DNA of 64,000 nt from the NCBI RefSeq assembly GCF_048403405.1, contig NZ_CP183129.1. One strand, written 5' to 3'. The position numbers were made by a program, and so were the translations under genes. The stretch comes from Escherichia coli (GTDB lineage: Bacteria > Pseudomonadota > Gammaproteobacteria > Enterobacterales > Enterobacteriaceae). Shown here piece after piece: positions 12,971 through 37,164 of this stretch (positions within the stretch are counted from its first letter, which is position 1; the number at the start of each line of letters is the position of its first letter). The notes under the pieces were generated by a model, which was not told the origin of the DNA, did no database searches, and saw only the letters and a list, made by a program, of their open reading frames with translations.

Positions 12971-13045
12971 GGGTCAGTCGTATAAAGGTCATTACGGAAG
13001 GCTGTTAACCTTCTTATCGTGGTTCGAGTCCACGCTGTCCCGCCA
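12971..13045 (+). tRNA. tRNA-like gene, anticodon GUU (Asn) by manual fold; one T:T mismatch in the acceptor stem
   Basis: Manual cloverleaf: acceptor GGGTCAG/CTGTCCC, anticodon stem GAAGG/CCTTC with loop CTGTTAA, T-arm CGTGG-TTCGAGT-CCACG, discriminator G, encoded CCA. Confidence 0.45.
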
Positions 13046-13050
13046 AATAT

Positions 13051-13126
13051 GCTGGTTTAGCTCCAATGGTAGAGCAGTCGCCTTGTAAGCGAATGGGTAG
13101 CGGTTCAAGTCCGTTAACCAGCACCA
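13051..13126 (+). tRNA. tRNA-like gene, anticodon UGU (Thr) by manual fold
   Basis: Acceptor GCTGGTT/AACCAGC (perfect), D-arm GCTC-CAATGGTA-GAGC, anticodon loop CTTGTAA, T-loop TTCAAGT, encoded CCA. Confidence 0.55.
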
Positions 13127-22828: not shown

Positions 22829-24247
22829 ATGCCGATTCAGCAACTTCCGCTTATGAAAGGTGTCGGCAAAGACTTTAGAAACGCTGACTATATCGACTAT
22901 CTGCCAGTGAATATGTTGGCTACACCCAAAGAAATCCTGAACAGCAGCGGATATCTTCGCTCATTCCCGGGCATTGCAAAACGTTCTGATGTGAACGGCG
23001 TATCGCGCGGTGTCGAGTACAACATGGCGCAGAATGCTGTTTATCGCGTTTGCGGTGGCAAGTTGTATAAGGGAGAAAGCGAGGTCGGTGATGTCGCCGG
23101 AAGTGGTCGCGTATCAATGGCGCATGGTCGAACATCTCAGGCGGTAGGCGTTAAAGGTCAACTGGTCGAGTATCGCTATGATGGCACGGTTAAAACAGTC
23201 TCAAACTGGCCTACAGACAGCGGATTCACTCAGTATGAGTTAGGTTCGGTTCGCGACATTACGCGTTTACGTGGGCGTTATGCGTGGTCAAAATACGGCA
23301 CTGATTCATGGTTTATCACTGACCTTCAAGACGAATCGCATCCTGACCGTTACAGCGCACAATATCGCGCAGAATCGCAGCCGGACGGTATCATCGGCAT
23401 CGGAACATGGCGAGACTTCATCGTCTGCTTTGGTTCATCGACGATTGAATATTTTTCCCTGACTGGGGCAACCACCGTTGGTGCCGCTTTGTATGTCGCA
23501 CAGCCATCACTGATGGTGCAGAAAGGCATTGCCGGGACTTACTGCAAAACGCCATTCGCTGATTCGTATGCGTTCATCAGCAATCCGGCAACAGGTGCGC
23601 CGTCTGTTTACATCATCGGCTCCGGTCAGGTATCACCAATCGCCAGCGCGAGCATTGAGAAAATCCTCCGCTCCTACTCTGCTGATGAACTGGCTGATGG
23701 CGTGATGGAGTCTCTACGATTTGATGCTCATGAGTTGCTGATTATCCACCTTCCGCGCCACGTCCTCGTGTACGACGCATCTTCAAGCGCCAATGGTCCG
23801 CAATGGTGTGTGTTGAAAACTGGCTTGTATGACGATGTGTACCGAGCTATCGACTTCATTTACGAAGGCAATCAGATAACGTGCGGCGATAAGCTGGAGT
23901 CCGTGACCGGGAAATTGCAGTTCGATATCAGCAGTCAGTATAGCCTTCAACAGGAACACCTGCTGTTTACTCCACTCTTCAAAGCGGATAACGCCAGAGT
24001 GTTCGACCTTGAGGTTGAATCGTCAACTGGCGTTGCGCAGTACGCCGACCGCCTTTTTCTCTCTGCAACCACTGACGGCATCAATTACGGGCGTGAGCAG
24101 ATGATTGAGCAGAATGAACCGTTCGTTTACGACAAGCGTGTTTTGTGGAAGCGAGTAGGGCGCATCAGGAAAAATGTCGGCTTCAAATTGCGCGTTATCA
24201 CGAAGTCACCTGTCACTCTGTCTGGCGCTCAGATAAGGATTGAGTAA
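22829..24247 (+). CDS. Head completion / tail hub protein (P22 gp10-like, 472 aa)
   Basis: Length equals P22 gp10 (472 aa); gene order. Confidence 0.7.
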
Positions 24248-25200
24248 TGGCTGATTCGAATCTCAATGTGCCGGTAATCATCCAAGCTACGCGGCTCGAT
24301 ACATCAGTCCTTCCACGCAATATCTTCTCGCAGTCGTATCTGCTTTACGTTATCGCACAGGGCACTGATGTTGGTAATGTGGCTAACAAAGCCAACGAGG
24401 CCGGACAGGGCGCTTATGATGCACAGGTCAGGAACGATGAGCAGGATGTCACCCTTGCAGACCATGAATCCAGAATTGAAGCTGCTGAAGCAACTCTCAT
24501 CAATCATGAACATAGAATTGCAGCAGCGGAAAGCACTCTTGCAGATCATGAAACAAGGATTACGGCTGCTGAAACAGAGCTGGCTGATCACGAGACGCGA
24601 ATTGCTGCCAATGAATCTGAGTTAGCAAACCATGATGCGCTCATAACTCAGAATACAACCGATATCGATGCACTTGATACCAGGCTCACAGCGGCAGAGG
24701 GAAGTATTTCGACGCTACAAGGCACAGTTGGTGATCACTCAACAAGAATATCTGCGCTTGAGTATGCCATCACGCGCAAGAAATCAGAGGTTGTTTACTC
24801 TGGCGTATCTGTAACCATCCCGACAGCGCCGACCAACCTTGTTAGCCTGCTGAAAACGCTCACGCCGTCATCCGGGACGTTGGCACCATTCTTCGACACT
24901 GTTAACAACAAGATGGTTGTGTTCAACGAGAACAAAACCTTGTTCTTCAAGCTGTCGATCGTCGGGACGTGGCCCAGCGGAACCGCCAACAGGTCAATGC
25001 AGCTAACCTTTTCCGGCTCTGTTCCTGACACGTTGGTCAGCAGTCGTAATGCGGCGACAACAACCGACAACATCCTGTTAGCTACGTTCTTCAGCGTGGA
25101 TAAAGACGGCTTTCTTGCCACAAATGGCAGTACGTTAACCATTCAGTCAAATGGTGCGGCGTTTACTGCCACAACCATCAAGATAATCGCGGAGCAGTAA
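24247..25200 (+). CDS. Tail needle protein (gp26-like, 317 aa) with repeated coiled-coil shaft and C-terminal extension
   Basis: Four to five tandem 14-residue repeats ([14 protein letters not shown] / [14 protein letters not shown] / [14 protein letters not shown] / [14 protein letters not shown]); gene order. Confidence 0.6.
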
Positions 25201-25655
25201 TGATTCAGTTCAAACCAACGCGAAACATCGACCTGATCGAAGCAGTCGGAAATCACCCTGACATTATTGCCGGGAGCAACAACGGTGATGGATACGACTA
25301 CAAACCTGATTGCCGTTACTTTGAGGTGAACGTGCACGGGCAGTTCGGCGGCATTGTTTACTATCAGGAGATTCAGCCGCTTACATTCGATTGCCACGCC
25401 ATGTACCTGCCAGAGATTCGCGGATTCAGCAAGGAAATCGGGCTGGCGTTCTGGCGATACATTCTGACTAACACCACCGTTCAGTGCGTCACATCGTTCG
25501 CTGCACGCAAATTCCGCCACGGGCAGATGTACTGCGCAATGATTGGCCTTAAGCGTGTAGGAACCATCAAGAAATACTTCAAAGGCGTGGATGACGTGAC
25601 GTTTTACAGCGCCACACGCGAAGAACTAATCGACTTCCTGAATCACGGGAGATAG
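25200..25655 (+). CDS. Head completion protein (P22 gp14-like, 151 aa)
   Basis: Gene order and size. Confidence 0.55.
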   Translation: MIQFKPTRNIDLIEAVGNHPDIIAGSNNGDGYDYKPDCRYFEVNVHGQFGGIVYYQEIQPLTFDCHAMYLPEIRGFSKEIGLAFWRYILTNTTVQCVTSFAARKFRHGQMYCAMIGLKRVGTIKKYFKGVDDVTFYSATREELIDFLNHGR

Positions 25656-25657
25656 CC

Positions 25658-26350
25658 ATGTTATATGCATTTAAGCTGGGCAGAAAACTGCGCGGCGAGG
25701 AACCTTATTGCCCTGAAAAAGGCGGGAAAGGTGGCAGTTCTGATAAAAGTGCAAAGTATGCCGCAGAAGCTCAGAAGTATGCCGCAGACCTGCAAAATAA
25801 GCAGTTCAACACCATCATGAACAACCTGAAGCCGTTTACTCCTCTGGCTGATAAGTATCTCGGCAGCCTCGAGAACTTATCGTCTCTGGAGGGGCAAGGT
25901 CAGGCGCTAAACCAGTATTACAACTCTCAGCAGTACAAAGATCTTGCTGGTCAGGCTCGCTATCAGAGTCTGGCTGCAGCGGAAGCAACAGGTGGATTGG
26001 GTTCCACCGCAACCAGTAATCAGTTAGCAACAATCGCACCAACGCTTGGTCAGCAATGGCTATCTGGACAAATGAACAATTACAACAACCTGGCAAATAT
26101 CGGTCTTGGCGCTCTTCAGGGGCAGGCAAACGCCGGGCAAACATATGCCAACAACATGAGTCAGATTTCACAGCAAAGCGCGGCGCTGGCGGCGGCAAAC
26201 GCCAACCGACCGTCAGCATTGCAGCAGGGTGTTAGTGGTGCTGCATCCGGTGCGCTTTTGGGTGGTGGCATAGCCAGTGCTCTCGAGCTATCAACTCCGT
26301 GGGGTGCTGGTATCGGTGCTGGTCTTGGTCTGCTTGGCTCGTTGTTTTAA
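25658..26350 (+). CDS. Ejection protein (P22 gp7-like, 230 aa)
   Basis: Size (P22 gp7 is 229 aa), Gln/Ala/Gly-rich composition, gene order. Confidence 0.6.
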   Translation: MLYAFKLGRKLRGEEPYCPEKGGKGGSSDKSAKYAAEAQKYAADLQNKQFNTIMNNLKPFTPLADKYLGSLENLSSLEGQGQALNQYYNSQQYKDLAGQARYQSLAAAEATGGLGSTATSNQLATIAPTLGQQWLSGQMNNYNNLANIGLGALQGQANAGQTYANNMSQISQQSAALAAANANRPSALQQGVSGAASGALLGGGIASALELSTPWGAGIGAGLGLLGSLF

Positions 26351-26360
26351 GGGGTAATCA

Positions 26361-27776
26361 ATGGCTACGTGGCAACAGGGTATTAATTCTGGTGGTTTTC
26401 TGGCTGGAATTGGTGCGCAAAATGAGAATGCGCCAAAGGCAAGCGACATTAACGCAACGCTTGGTCTGATTCGCGAAAACAATGAACTGGCTCGCTCAGG
26501 TGCAAATAACGTTGGTCTGACCGCGTTACGTGGTCTGGCTGGAGTTGCTGATATTTACAATCAGGAACAGCAACAGAAAGCTATTAGTGCGTTCAATAAG
26601 GTTCACGCTGATGCATGGGTTTCTGGTGATCCATCGGGACTATTTAAGTTTGCCCAGGAAAATCCAGCGTTTGTTGCACAGGCACAACAGGCGTTTTCAG
26701 GTCTTAATGATCAGCAACGCAACGATATGGGCGATTTAGCCATGAGGGCTAACGTCGCTCTTTCTCAGGGACCGGAAGCCTACAGTAAATTCATTACTGA
26801 CAACAAGGACAGGTTAAATCGCGTGGGGGCGAATGCTGACTGGATGATTCAGACAGGTATCCAGAATCCAGAGCAGCTATCACACATGCTGACTACTATG
26901 TCTCTCGGTGCGCTTGGACCAGAAAAGGCGTTTGCTGTTCAGGACAAGATGGCTGGTCGTGAAATTGACCGAGGCAGACTGGCAGAGACAATCCGCAGCA
27001 ATCAGGCTGGAGAAGCACTTCAGGCGAGAGGGCAAAACCTTTCCTATCAGTCAGCAATGACTGGGCACAATATCGCAGCACAACGCTTGGCTCTGGATCA
27101 GCAAGAGTTCGGGTTTAAGATGCAGCAAGCGCAGGAAAAGGCTCAGCAGTTGATTAGCGAAGCACCTAAGCTGTCAGTAAACATGGAAAAAGGCATCGAG
27201 ACGGCTGTAAACAATGCCACAGCATCATCAAACTCAGCCAATTCCATGAGTGCGCTTGCTCAACAGTTCAGAGCAGAAAAACCAACGACAGGTTTGTTCG
27301 GTAACGCACAGAACATGTTCGCAAAACTTACCGGAAGCGATACGACATTGCGTGATTTGCGCATTCGCCAAAATGCTCTTGTTAACAGTCAGGTTCTTAA
27401 ATTCCTACCTCCCGGCCCAGCAACGGATAAAGACGTTGAGATCGTTCGACAGGGTGCACCAACTGACATGGATAACCCTGAGACGGTCGCAAGATGGCTT
27501 GATGCGATGGCAAACCTTGAGCGACGAAACGCGCAGTTTAATGAGTTTAAAGCCGAGTGGATGAGCGCGAATGGCAATCCAGGACAATCGCGTAATGGCG
27601 GTCAGATATTGGGGTTGGATGTTAAAAAAGGTGAATCATTGGGGAGTGCCGTTAAGCGGTATATGTCAATGAATACTGACGCAGCGCCAGCACAAGATTC
27701 GACACCTTCAGGAGAACCACGGAATCAGGTTGGATCATATACCTCAAAATCAGGCATTCAATTTACGGTGGAATGA
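26361..27776 (+). CDS. Ejection protein (P22 gp20-like, 471 aa)
   Basis: Size identical to P22 gp20; gene order. Confidence 0.65.
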
Positions 27777-29614
27777 TGAAAGTAACTGCAAACGGTAAGA
27801 CATTTACCTTTCCTGATGGTACGAGCACCGAAGATATTGGCACCGCCATTGATGAGTATTTTGCTGGTCAGGCTGTTCAGCAACAAACAGTTAATCAGGC
27901 CAATAATGCACCAACACGGGAAGAACCATCATTGATGCAACAAGCTGGCGATTGGCTCACAGGTGGTCAAAGTGCAGGGCAAATTGCAGAACAGGCTGGT
28001 CGTGGTCTGGTAAACATACCATTTGACGTATTGCAGGGTGGCGCAAGTCTGATTAATGCAATCAGTCAGGGGCTTGGTGGGCCAAAAGTATTAGATGATG
28101 TCTATCGTCCAGTCGATCGACCGACAGACCCTTATGCGCAAGCTGGAGAAACAATTGGCGGGTATTTAGTTCCAGGAGTTGGAACGGCAGGAAGCATGGC
28201 TATTGGATCACTGGCAGAGGCCGCAAATCAGAAAGGCGATTTCGCACAAAATGCAGCTAAAAATGCCGGAGTTAACCTTGCCGCTCAGGGTGTTCTTTCC
28301 GCAGCAGCAAAGGGAATAGGGCGTGGAATAACGGCTATAAAAGGTGATATTGCGCCAGAAGTGGCGAAGAAAATTGCCACATCAGAATCGATGGGCGTGA
28401 CACCAATGACATCTGATGTTATCCCGCCGAAAAATGCTTTCACTCGCGGCCTTACTCAGGATGCCGAGGGGGCTTTGCTCGGGACAGGCTCAAAGCGAGC
28501 GGAGCAATATGCAACGCGTAGTAAGTTGGTAAGTAATTATTTTGACCGTTTTGGTGAGTACAACCCTGATGATGTGGTGAAATCTCTGACCACCACGTTA
28601 AGGGGGCGGAAGGATGCCGCTGGCGCTGTTATCAATGACGTCACCAATAAAATGGGTAATGCCGCAGTTGATACCACAAATACCATGAATGCTCTGAATA
28701 CAGCGATCGCAAGACAGGAACGGCTTGGGACTTCAGCCAATCAAAGCCTGCTTACATCCTTGCGTAACCTACGTGAAGAATTAGCAAACCCTGCAACTGA
28801 TTTGGATGTTACGTTTGATCTCTTGCGTCAGCACAGAACAGCATTTAGATCTAATGTTCAGGGAGATGCTATGGTCTTCCCCAACCAGGCAAAAGCAGCT
28901 ACCAATATGGTAGAGAATGCAATGTCAAAAGACCTTCGTAACGCAGTTGCTAAAAACCTCGGTGCATCAGACGCAGCAAAATACCTTAAAGCAAATTCCG
29001 ATTATGCAAACGTTTATAATAAGGTGCTTAATAAAAACATTGCTAACAAGCTCAACAAGGCAAGCAGTGAAGCCAGTCCTGAACTTATAAATACCGTTGT
29101 ATTAAGCAGAAAACCATCTGACGTAAAACGAATCTGGAGCGCATTGGATAATAAAGGGAAAGATGCTATGCGTGCAGCTTATGTCAGCAAAATAGCGGAA
29201 AAGGCCGGTGACTCTCCAGCCAAGTTCATCACTGAAGTTAATAAGCTGAAATCTCAGTCAGGCGGTGAAATTTACAACACTATTTTTTCTGGAAAGCACA
29301 TGAAAGAGCTTGATGCTCTTCATGAAGTTCTACAGCAAACAGCAAGGTCAGACACCGCAAATGTAGTAACTCAGACGGGGCAATCACAAGCCAACAGGAT
29401 AAGGACGATTGGCGCAACTGCGACTCTTGGCGTATCAATGGGGCTTGAGTCTGGCTTTGGTGCAATGATGCGTTTGTATGAGTCTAAAGCAGCAAGAAAC
29501 ATGCTTCTCCGCCTTGCAAACGTCAAGCCTGGAACTCCGGCATATGAGCGAGCGTTAAATCAGGCTGCTAACGCCGTTCGCCCTCTCCTAACTAACGAAG
29601 CTACCAGGCAGTAG
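27773..29614 (+). CDS. Ejection protein (P22 gp16-like, 613 aa)
   Basis: Size (P22 gp16 is 609 aa); gene order. Confidence 0.65.
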
Positions 29615-31490: not shown

Positions 31491-33569
31491 ATGACAGACA
31501 TTACAGCCAATGTTGTAGTGAGCATGCCTTCGCAACTCTTCACTATGGCGCGTTCTTTTAAAGCCGTAGCCAATGGCAAAATTTATATCGGAAAAATTGA
31601 CACTGACCCGGTAAATCCTGAAAACCAGATTCAGGTTTATGTGGAGAATGAGGATGGTTCTCACGCTCCTGTATCGCAACCAATCATCATTAACGCTGCT
31701 GGTTACCCGGTATATAACGGACAGATTGCCAAGTTCGTAACTGTGCAAGGCCATTCTATGGCTGTTTATGATGCGTATGGTGCGCAGCAGTTTTATTTTC
31801 CTAATGTGCTGAAGTATGACCCTGATCAGTTTCAGAAGAGGTTGGCATCCTTTGATGATGGTGATGGGGATGAATTAGTGTCGGTGAAACAACCATTCCC
31901 CGGAGCAGCAAATCAAACTCAACACCAAAAGAACCAACAAATCATTGATGTTCTTGACTTCGGTGCTCATCCATCGAATGCTGACAATAAAGTAGCTCTG
32001 CAATTTGCGCTAGATGCAATATATAGCATTGGAGGAGGTACACTACAGTTTTCACTACCAGGCATATATACTTTGCTTTCTGAGTTGCAAATAAAATCAA
32101 ATACTCACCTAAAGATGACTGATGGCGTAACCATTAAACGTAATTTTTCTAATGACGTCATGCTGAGAATAAGCCCTAATACTGGCACTAACATTAAAAT
32201 AACAGGCGGAATACTAGATGGAGGAGGACAAGACCACCCTACAGATCCTTTTGACATCATTGCAGCCTCCTCACCAAGAAATCTTTCTATTGTTGGAGTA
32301 ACATTTCTTGATGTAGTCGATTTTCATGCTGTAGATATTGCTGACGGGCAAGGGGTGATTATAAGAGACTGTAAGTTTCTTGGCTTCAAACCACTTTCCA
32401 ACCGAAATTATTCAGAAGCGATCCAGTTAGATCCGGGGATTGAATCTCTTGGCGATTATTACCCAAACATCAATGTTCTTGTTGATAACTGTTATTTTGG
32501 TTCAAATCCACAAAATACCACCACTGGGTTTGGGGCGTGGGGGGCGGGGGTTGGGAACCATGCTAATTCATATGGGAATCAGGACAAAAATATAAGGGTC
32601 ATAAACTGCAGGTTCGATGGAATGCTCTTTGCCGGGGTAAGGGTTTTCAACTGGTATGATTGGGTGGTTAGCGGATGCTCTTTCTATAACAGTACCGCGC
32701 GAGGAGTTCATGTAACCCCATTCCCATCATCATCAAAACCACAGGGGGCAAGGAGGGGGCGCATTGTTGGCAATTATTTTGAAGGCGTTAGATCCCCGAT
32801 TCTTCTGGCTGCACCTACATATCCATATACAGATACATCAGATGCATTTCATGAAGATATCGTAATATCCAACAATTCCATGTTTATTACAGAGTCTCAA
32901 TCATATGCAGTAGACGCAAGATGGGTTTCAGGACTAACTGTCACTGGAAACACAGCAAGAGGCGGAATCGGTTTTTTCAAAGGTGATTTTATTAACAAAT
33001 CAATCATCTCTAATAATGAATACGATTCAGGAACATCAAGTTCTTTATGGATTTCTGAAACTAATGCAGAAGAATTTATAGGGTCTGGTTTTTCGCATGA
33101 TGTTGTAATTTCTAGCAACATCTTTAGAAATATTTCCCTGCATGGGATTCATATTAATGGTAAATATTCAAATGTTACTATTCAATCAAACATTATAGTT
33201 GGGGTTTCTACCGCAGATAATAACCATAATGGCATACGAATTGACTCTGGTGCAGAAAATGTAATTGTTAGTTCAAATCAAATTCGTGATGGCGTTGCAA
33301 ATAATAAACCATTAGTTGGTATATTTGCTACATCAAGCTGTAAGAGCGTGTCATTTATAGGGAATGTTTCATTTGGAACATCAGCCACACAGAATAATCA
33401 AGCTACAGATAAAAGCTCACTTGTGATATTTGGGCAAGAAGGCAACCCAACATCTAGCGGAGTTGGAGCACCAGTTGGTTCTATTTACACTCGTTCTGAT
33501 GGAGGTGGAAATACAGTACTTTATATAAAGGAAAGCAACACAAATGCTACAGGTTGGGTTAATAAGTAA
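31491..33569 (+). CDS. Tailspike protein (692 aa): P22 gp9-like head-binding N-terminus, divergent beta-helix receptor-binding domain
   Basis: First ~110 aa match P22 gp9 ([11 protein letters not shown]...[33 protein letters not shown]...[14 protein letters not shown]...NVLKYDPDQ); remainder is unrelated, AT-rich and Gly/Asn/Ser-rich. Confidence 0.85.
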
Positions 33570-36408: not shown

Positions 36409-37164
36409 ATGAAGCTTCGCCTGTCGGCGCTTGCTCTGGGAACTACGCTTCTGGTGGGGTGTGCGAGTTCCGGTACAGATCAGCAAGGGCGTTCTGACCC
36501 GTTAGAAGGGTTCAACCGCACCATGTACAACTTCAACTTCAATGTATTAGACCCGTATATTGTTCGACCGGTCGCTGTCGCCTGGCGTGATTATGTTCCG
36601 CAACCGGCGCGTAACGGTTTGAGCAACTTTACTGGCAACCTTGAAGAACCTGCGGTGATGGTTAACTACTTCTTGCAGGGCGACCCTTATCAGGGGATGG
36701 TCCACTTTACCCGCTTTTTCCTGAACACCATTTTGGGGATGGGCGGCTTTATTGATGTTGCAGGGATGGCGAACCCGAAACTGCAACGGACTGAACCTCA
36801 CCGCTTCGGTAGTACGCTTGGTCATTATGGTGTGGGTTATGGGCCATACGTTCAGTTACCGTTCTACGGTAGCTTCACGCTGCGTGATGACGGTGGTGAT
36901 ATGGCGGATGGTCTTTACCCGGTTCTTTCCTGGCTGACCTGGCCGATGTCTGTGGGTAAATGGACGCTTGAAGGGATAGAAACTCGTGCGCAGTTGTTGG
37001 ATTCCGATGGTCTGCTGCGTCAGTCGTCCGATCCTTATATTATGGTGCGCGAAGCGTACTTCCAGCGTCATGATTTCATCGCTAATGGCGGCGAACTCAA
37101 ACCGCAGGAAAATCCGAACGCGCAAGCGATTCAGGATGATTTAAAAGATATCGATTCTGAATAA
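36409..37164 (+). CDS. mlaA: Outer-membrane lipoprotein MlaA (VacJ), phospholipid asymmetry (251 aa)
   Basis: Lipobox LLVGCAS; recognised MlaA sequence (...GFNRTMYNFNFNVLDPY...). Confidence 0.85.
   Translation: MKLRLSALALGTTLLVGCASSGTDQQGRSDPLEGFNRTMYNFNFNVLDPYIVRPVAVAWRDYVPQPARNGLSNFTGNLEEPAVMVNYFLQGDPYQGMVHFTRFFLNTILGMGGFIDVAGMANPKLQRTEPHRFGSTLGHYGVGYGPYVQLPFYGSFTLRDDGGDMADGLYPVLSWLTWPMSVGKWTLEGIETRAQLLDSDGLLRQSSDPYIMVREAYFQRHDFIANGGELKPQENPNAQAIQDDLKDIDSE

Follow-up and report, generated by a model that had tools for sequence, protein, structure and literature searches.

Shaft repeats of an HS1-type prophage tail needle and the rare changes of their number among relatives

We examined the tandem repeats in the tail needle gene of an Escherichia coli prophage, which is contained in a stretch of 64,000 nucleotides that was analysed as a whole (the window; all positions given below refer to it). 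With a probability that we put at roughly 0.88, the repeats are units of a trimeric coiled-coil shaft that descend from old duplications, and their copy number changes rarely, by misalignment at microhomologies, with no programmed switch being involved. The feature as such is already known: the needle is a near-copy of the published HS1 needle, and the length variability of such needles has been published in outline. What we add is modest and consists of the span of 7-20 heptads, at least 13 events that keep the heptad phase, the microhomologies at the junctions, the rarity of the variants, and the independence of needle length from the tailspike. The relatives provide a ready-made natural series of needle lengths for testing the effect of length on genome delivery or fibre stability, as well as an example of a long coiled coil that changes its length without loss of register. 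Beyond correct annotation, the array otherwise has little significance.

The needle gene, its shaft and its prophage

The gene belongs to the P22 gp26 family of tail needles (Table 1). Pfam assigned its C-terminal part to PF16532 (Phage_tail_NK; Sf6-type phage tail needle knob) with an E-value of 1.1e-106 and 354 bits, and the PDB matches found with phmmer were the HS1 knob (4k6b), the Sf6 knob (3rwn), and P22 gp26 (2poh and 3c9i). The two knob chains, 4k6b and 3rwn, matched the needle with E about 1e-89 and near identity. Residues 165-317 are nearly identical to both of these knobs (4K6B and 3RWN), residue 165 being the one at which the HS1 knob crystal chain begins. In the phmmer results, residues 1-134 aligned without gaps to 2poh, 3c9i, and 4zkp (E about 1e-42), and residues 3-64 aligned to 8eap_B in the PDB. 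The residues of the plug region (residues 1-69) are invariant across the homologues.

The gap-free alignment is to a part of P22 gp26 that has been crystallised as a trimer, and the repeats can accordingly be assigned to the coiled-coil shaft of the needle. The AF2 monomer model contains one continuous helix from residue 42 to residue 175, with pLDDT values of 90-98 over residues 61-160 and low confidence in the plug and in part of the knob; a monomer model cannot show a trimer. Together with the Pfam and PDB matches, this helix bore out the first-pass annotation of the sequence, which had called the gene product a gp26-like tail needle with repeats in its shaft. Homology to trimeric crystal structures, the sequence pattern, and published work (PMC3741392) all suggest that the shaft is a homotrimeric coiled coil. 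Its heptad register, going by the residue pattern, would place Leu (position 1) and Ile (position 8) of the unit at a, and His (position 4) and Ala (position 11) at d. At the standard rise of about 1.5 Å per residue, one 14-residue unit amounts to two heptads and about 21 Å, so that the three-heptad steps in needle length predicted in the first-pass annotation were an error. The number of units would set the distance between the knob and the N-terminal plug that closes the tail channel. For P22 gp26, Olia et al. are said to have described in 2007 a "trimerization octad" with the consensus IxxLxxxV, and the unit may be regarded as a His-containing version of this octad plus six residues.

The closest known system is the HS1 needle (E. 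coli HS; EcHS_A0316 / ECHS_RS01575; 4K6B), which has an equal length (317 aa, 954 bp), 96.8% DNA identity, and likewise an eight-unit shaft of 16 heptads, the same knob, and the same gene neighbours. It differs only by point changes, those in the shaft (given as here/HS1) being D100/E, A107/D, L132/R, T138/A, G159/S, and I175/T. The needles of the cultured phages Gally, JEP4, and vB_EcoP-720R6 are 95.6-97% identical to that of the window. The R132L change (CGC to CTC, 24640-24642) lies in unit 4 and occurs, among the listed sequences, only in the window's allele. An Arg is otherwise conserved at the seventh position of every unit, and Arg132 is kept in the other 80 needles of the IMG/VR set and in all listed shafts, which read LANHDAR or close variants of it. 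S159G (24721-23) is found in no other listed sequence, and T175I (24769-71) is common to several alleles.

According to Leavitt et al. 2013 (PMC3741392), the needles of P22-like phages are 220-320 Å long and contain 11-16 heptads, with 16 in the 317-aa HS1 needle as opposed to 11 in Sf6 and P22, and hybrid needles with an in-register join are functional. Sf6 gp9 (282 aa; 3RWN) resembles the window's needle in its plug, its knob, its 14-residue register, and the LxxHExRI units at the start of its shaft, but it has 11 heptads instead of 16 and contains a mid-shaft module, IAQNESD ISSLDTR VQSLESQ VSDHETR, which is an 84-bp unit flanked by an 11-nt direct repeat. P22 gp26 (233 aa; 2POH, 3C9I) has a homologous plug, a core that aligns gap-free over residues 1-134, and the same 14-residue spacing; it differs in having only two His-type units and another C-terminal domain, with no knob. 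That C-terminal domain of P22 gp26 is an inverted coiled coil. In the engineered elongated gp26 fibre 4LIN (300 residues), duplication of part of the helical core gave a longer, solvable fibre, to which residues 70-187 of the window's needle can also be aligned in another, shifted register. The 4LIN fibre is man-made and of P22 sequence, whereas the needle variants described below are natural.

The window contains a P22-like prophage inserted at tRNA-Arg(CCT). As in a P22-like morphogenesis cluster, the needle gene follows the gp10 homologue, the stop codon of which overlaps the start codon of the needle gene, and precedes the genes for gp14 and the ejection proteins. The structural module in the left half of the window looks complete, with terminase, portal, coat, gp4, gp10, needle, and ejection proteins, and it ends with a 692-aa tailspike, followed by an integrase that adjoins tRNA-Arg(CCT). 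The 613-aa ORF at 27773-29614 had no Pfam match; judged by position only, and by comparison with a PF26808 gene in the related locus L095, it may be the gene in the gp16 position. Inside the prophage and upstream of the structural genes are tRNA-Asn(GTT) and tRNA-Thr(TGT) (12971-13126). Beyond tRNA-Arg(CCT) is a gene of the formate/nitrite transporter family, whose counterpart in the E. coli locus L014 is annotated as yfdC and is followed by mlaA. By comparison with L014, a 251-aa ORF at 36409-37164 occupies the mlaA position, and the right part of the window, 37346-64000, has a run of + strand ORFs at 46622-57423. A 95-aa ORF antisense to the needle gene (24304-24591, - strand) was rejected as a gene; it is open in only 32 of 68 alleles and is a by-product of the repeat composition.

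Table 1. Features of the needle gene, its neighbours, and the short direct repeats within its shaft
Feature	Position	Strand	Basis or role
gp10-like tail hub / packaged-DNA stabilisation protein	22829..24247	+	PF11134, E 4e-296; directly upstream of needle
Tail needle gene (317 aa), HS1/Sf6 knob subtype, P22 gp26 family	24247..25200	+	ORF, Pfam, PDB matches
N-terminal plug / virion-binding domain and helix start, aa 1-69	24247..24453	+	P22 gp26 and 8eap_B alignments
Four strong 14-residue (42-nt) units, aa 70-125	24454..24621	+	Register layout, TRF, shuffles, codon sharing
Degenerate fifth unit (unit 4), aa 126-139	24622..24663	+	4-6/14 residues common with units 0-3
Octad-type shaft end (units 5-7), aa 140-177	24664..24777	+	Register; Leu instead of His at core position
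C-terminal knob, aa 178-317	24778..25197	+	PF16532; ~98-99% identity to HS1 and Sf6 knob crystal chains
Downstream genes: gp14-like (DUF2824), gp7-like, gp20-like ejection proteins, 613-aa ORF	25200..29614	+	PF11039, PF25688, PF16928
CTTGCAGA	24454..24461, again 24538-24545 (84 nt apart)	+	Bounds 84-bp deletion and 84-bp duplication in relatives
AGAATTG	24472..24478, again 24514-24520	+	Junction of 42-bp deletion, 303a allele (P0010)
GCTGCTGAA	24481..24489, again 24565-24573	+	Longest exact in-register repeat in window's allele
ATCATGAA	24503..24510, again 24545-24552	+	Junction of 42-bp deletion, 303c allele (P0040)
TGATCAC	24585..24591, again 24732-24738 (147 nt apart)	+	Junction of 147-bp (49-residue) deletion, 268-aa allele (P0062)

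Repeat units in the protein and in the DNA

The 14-residue (42-nt) register begins exactly at nt 24454 (residue 70). The extent proposed in the first-pass annotation, 24454-24667, has its start exactly in register and its end 4 nt beyond unit 4. Units 0-3 conform to the pattern L-x-[DN]-H-E-x-R-I-x-A-[AN]-E-x-x and agree pairwise at 8-11 of 14 residues and at 20-31 of 42 nt, the DNA identity between units being 48-74%. Of the four to five copies that had been counted earlier, four are strong units, and the fifth (unit 4) is degenerate. The 14-residue period is kept in units 5-7 (IDALDTRL..., ISTLQGTV..., and ISALEYAI), which fit octads of the form aliphatic-x-x-Leu-x-x-x-aliphatic, 14 residues apart, units 0-4 being the His variant of this arrangement (LADHESRI and so on).

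DNA self-identity at an offset of 42 was 0.54, compared with 0.31 +/- 0.03 in codon shuffles (z 7.4; 0 of 10,000), and protein self-identity at an offset of 14 was 0.50, compared with 0.11 in shuffles (z 10.8). The period of 14 stood out as well when heptad positions were preserved in the shuffling (z 4.0; 2 of 10,000), so the repeat truly has a period of 14 and not only one of 7. Tandem Repeats Finder reported only 24450-24552, with a period of 42, 2.5 copies, 70% matches, and a score of 102. This period and the offset-42 shuffle test confirmed that there is an imperfect 42-bp tandem repeat at the DNA level. At identical residues, the codons agree more often than expected in units 0-2 only: units 0 and 2 have 8 of 10 codons in common, with 3.7 expected, and another pair among these units has 6 of 9, with 3.2 expected. 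No excess of common codons at identical residues was found for unit 3 and later units. Because of the extent of the Tandem Repeats Finder match and the limits of codon sharing, the DNA-level tandem repeat covers only about 2.5-3 units, within a protein-level repeat of 4-5 (up to 8) units, and is weaker than the first-pass annotation had suggested. The units would have arisen by old tandem duplications, and a trace of this common descent persists in the codons of units 0-2 only.

The same 14-residue motif (aliphatic-x-x-H-E-x-R-I-x-x-A/N-E-x-T) is present in P0213, P0190, P0186, P0218, and P0262. In these larger, unrelated proteins (407-1,820 aa), the arrays consist of three to six strict units, and one protein of the set has a signal-peptide-like N-terminus. 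The motif looks like a widely reused building block of trimeric fibres. Giant coiled-coil proteins (1,000-2,500 aa) were rejected as further examples, being mostly generic coiled-coil matches without the motif; few have true LxxHExRI arrays.

Length variants of the needle and their junctions

A homologue search covering 5.8 billion proteins recovered needles whose lengths are mainly 254, 268, 282, 289, 296, 303, 310, 317, 331, 338, and 345 aa. In a layout by heptads, the length differences among 65 of 69 distinct shafts are multiples of seven residues. Four shafts (109, 102, 91, and 78 residues) are out of heptad phase, which means that some events were not in register. We saw at least 13 distinct in-register gains or losses. 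The HS1-type lineage has 14-residue and 28-residue deletions, three different ones of each size, as well as a single 49-residue deletion and a 28-residue duplication. In the Sf6-type lineage, the 28-residue (84-bp) mid-shaft module is carried in 0, 1, 2, or 3 copies, and a 14-residue (42-bp) duplication and a 14-residue deletion occur as well. By the published counting, in which HS1 has 16 heptads and Sf6 has 11, the natural range is 7 to 20 heptads (254 to 345 aa). Homologues from Klebsiella (Klebsiella aerogenes) and Serratia, with about 76% identity, have the same 317-aa layout with five His units, and in the wider family the number of His-type units ranges from 1-2 (P22 and epsilon34 types) up to 7 (P0123).

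Copy number therefore does differ among relatives, as the first-pass annotation had supposed when it proposed that the array expands and contracts; related phages do not all carry the same number of units. Whole in-register units are indeed gained and lost, but the steps are not limited to single units, as changes of 84 bp and of 147 bp (3.5 units, 7 heptads) also occur.

Fusions or alternative start codons probably account for a few odd lengths; the shaft of P0008 (324 aa) has the standard 110 residues, and P0057 (394 aa) carries an extra PF11650 (gp4-type) domain match. In P0121, P0125, P0128, P0134, and P0145, the needle N-terminus and the first units are joined to unrelated sequence, with P0134 continuing into DUF2824/gp14-like sequence, and P0128 and P0145 into gp20-like sequence. 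Such fusions probably arose in decaying prophages, through deletions with an endpoint within the shaft.

We aligned, unit by unit, the DNA of Sf6, HS1, and 11 variant alleles. Ten of the 11 variant-allele junctions fall on in-register microhomology of 7-11 nt, and the corresponding sites in the window were verified. The sequence CTTGCAGA bounds an 84-bp deletion in a 289-aa allele (P0042) and an 84-bp duplication in the 345-aa and 331-aa alleles. This duplication is perfect in the 345-aa allele; in the 331-aa allele, where the 303b deletion is present as well, a single silent base distinguishes the copies. The GCTGCTGAA repeat fits the junction of another 289-aa variant, P0051, as far as can be told from its protein sequence only. 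In the Sf6 type, GACCATGAAAC is the junction for loss and gain of the 84-bp module in the 254-, 310-, and 338-aa alleles, and CATGAG and AGCGAAT are at the junction of the 42-bp duplication in the 296-aa allele (P0063). At the 303b junction the overlap is only 2 nt in the window's allele, but it reaches 7 nt where unit 4 contains CGCGAAT.

RecA-dependent recombination needs roughly 25 bp, and 7-11 nt are typical of replication slippage or short-homology events. Between units of the window's allele, exact in-register matches reach a length of 9 nt, the corresponding maximum across the 68 alleles being 8-11 nt. Copy number would shift occasionally, by misalignment at in-register microhomologies of 7-11 nt that lie 42, 84, or 147 nt apart. 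To judge by the scars left at the junctions, the process may be replication slippage or some other RecA-independent process that uses short homology; phage recombinases acting on short homology would leave identical scars. The first-pass annotation had attributed the changes to recombination. The junctions point to slippage at short microhomologies and not to homologous recombination. The in-register placement of the microhomologies preserves both reading frame and heptad phase, and the products should consequently still fold as a coiled coil. The fresh, perfect 84-bp and 42-bp duplications in relatives demonstrate that duplication adds units.

To call the array "prone to" such changes, as had been done, was an overstatement, given that the units are 48-74% identical, that their exact in-register matches are at most 9-11 nt, and that variants are rare. 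Slipped-strand contingency loci likewise change copy number by misalignment of direct repeats. Unlike those loci, which undergo phase variation at simple sequence repeats, the needle has units that are long, imperfect, and in frame, and its changes are rare and alter length, not expression. The near-identical units and the frequent copy-number change in close relatives that mark a contingency locus are not found here.

Frequency of the variants and the role of needle length

The best 80 of 498 IMG/VR relatives are all exactly 317 aa, in 68 distinct DNA alleles. A needle match is carried by 911 of 5,426 complete E. coli genomes, about 164 of these being of the full-length type. An evenly spaced sample of 60 of the 915 records contained only genes of 954/952 bp and 849/847 bp, plus truncated remnants. 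Junction-specific searches of the 5,426 complete E. coli genomes gave no match for the 303a junction and a single one for the 303b junction, which gives a 303-aa needle; this match is in the finished genome of E. coli CFSAN061770 (NZ_CP023142.1, 1621569-1649603; locus L014). The prophage in L014 occupies the same tRNA-Arg site and is defective, its tailspike being a truncated pseudogene and an IS1 fragment being present; some variants may simply be in decaying prophages. The 254-aa (7-heptad) form occurs in prophages that have a complete set of full-length structural genes, and it was read on 24 contigs; given these complete structural modules, at least some length variants are plausibly functional. 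Cultured phages with a closely related needle of the Sf6/HS1 type have only 317 or 282 aa. The 317-aa (16-heptad) and 282-aa (11-heptad) forms dominate, and gain or loss of units is rare.

About a third of the sampled genomes (E. coli O157:H7, H91-H109) match only needle positions 507-952. These O157:H7 remnants are annotated as a lone "tail needle knob protein", which agrees with PMC3741392, where a small P22-like remnant is described.

The 14-residue period could have been caused by convergence on coiled-coil packing, with no history of duplication and with the likeness of the DNA being a by-product of the likeness of the amino acids. The behaviour of unit 3 and later units, which have no excess of common codons, would fit such an origin, as would the presence of the motif in unrelated fibre-like proteins. 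We nevertheless consider it very improbable, and for units 0-2 refuted, in view of the codons that these units share above expectation (8/10 with 3.7 expected, and 6/9 with 3.2), the excess of period 14 over the heptad-preserving shuffle, and the fresh perfect 84-bp and 42-bp duplications of these same units in relatives. It is extremely improbable that the length variants are artefacts of assembly or annotation, even though many come from short-read assemblies, some of them from single small contigs, and a few odd lengths (P0008, P0057) probably have the trivial origins given above. Units with at most 74% identity are too diverged to collapse in assembly, and short reads would, if anything, under-count perfect 84-bp repeats. 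P0010 and P0091 were each read on 24 contigs and P0062 on 7, one 303-aa allele is in a finished genome, and 10 of the 11 sequenced junctions are on in-register microhomology of 7-11 nt.

The array could also be an evolvable length dial, whose copy number changes frequently and is tuned by selection to the host envelope, the O-antigen, or the tailspike. In its favour are the ladder of 7-20 heptads with its many independent in-register events, the 254-aa form, which has been read on 24 contigs and belongs to prophages whose structural modules are complete, and the high ratio (21:8) of amino-acid-changing to silent polymorphic codons in units 0-3. Frequent change is, however, not what the relatives show: only one genome out of the 5,426 complete ones has the commonest 303-aa junction, the second being absent from all of them, the cultured phages with Sf6/HS1-type needles are restricted to 317 or 282 aa, the Klebsiella and Serratia homologues keep 317 aa, and the units offer at most 9-11 nt of exact in-register match. 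Tuning to the tailspike was rejected, since in the best 80 IMG/VR loci the one length of 317 aa is combined with at least 29 clusters of tailspike bodies, of 478-825 aa, and length is therefore independent of tailspike type; nor was any other correlate of needle length found. We regard a length dial as quite improbable. It is unlikely, in our view, that slippage keeps making functional needles of 7-20 heptads whose length affects the timing or efficiency of DNA delivery across envelopes that differ in thickness, with the rare variants being adaptive and not neutral or decaying. We prefer the reading of old shaft units that are only rarely gained or lost at microhomologies.

The tailspike (31491-33569 in the window; compared across loci L015-L094) has a conserved head-binding N-terminus and a body that is freely swapped, and the window's 692-aa type recurs in one other of these loci. 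Among the 68 needle alleles, nucleotide diversity is lowest in the shaft (0.019-0.026), with 0.061 in the plug and 0.046 in the knob. Changing and silent polymorphic codons are in the ratio 21:8 in units 0-3, which is the highest share of changing codons, 15:30 in the plug, and 30:56 in the knob. The pattern could mean that the segment is a younger, mosaic one, or that selection on the surface positions of the shaft is relaxed or diversifying.
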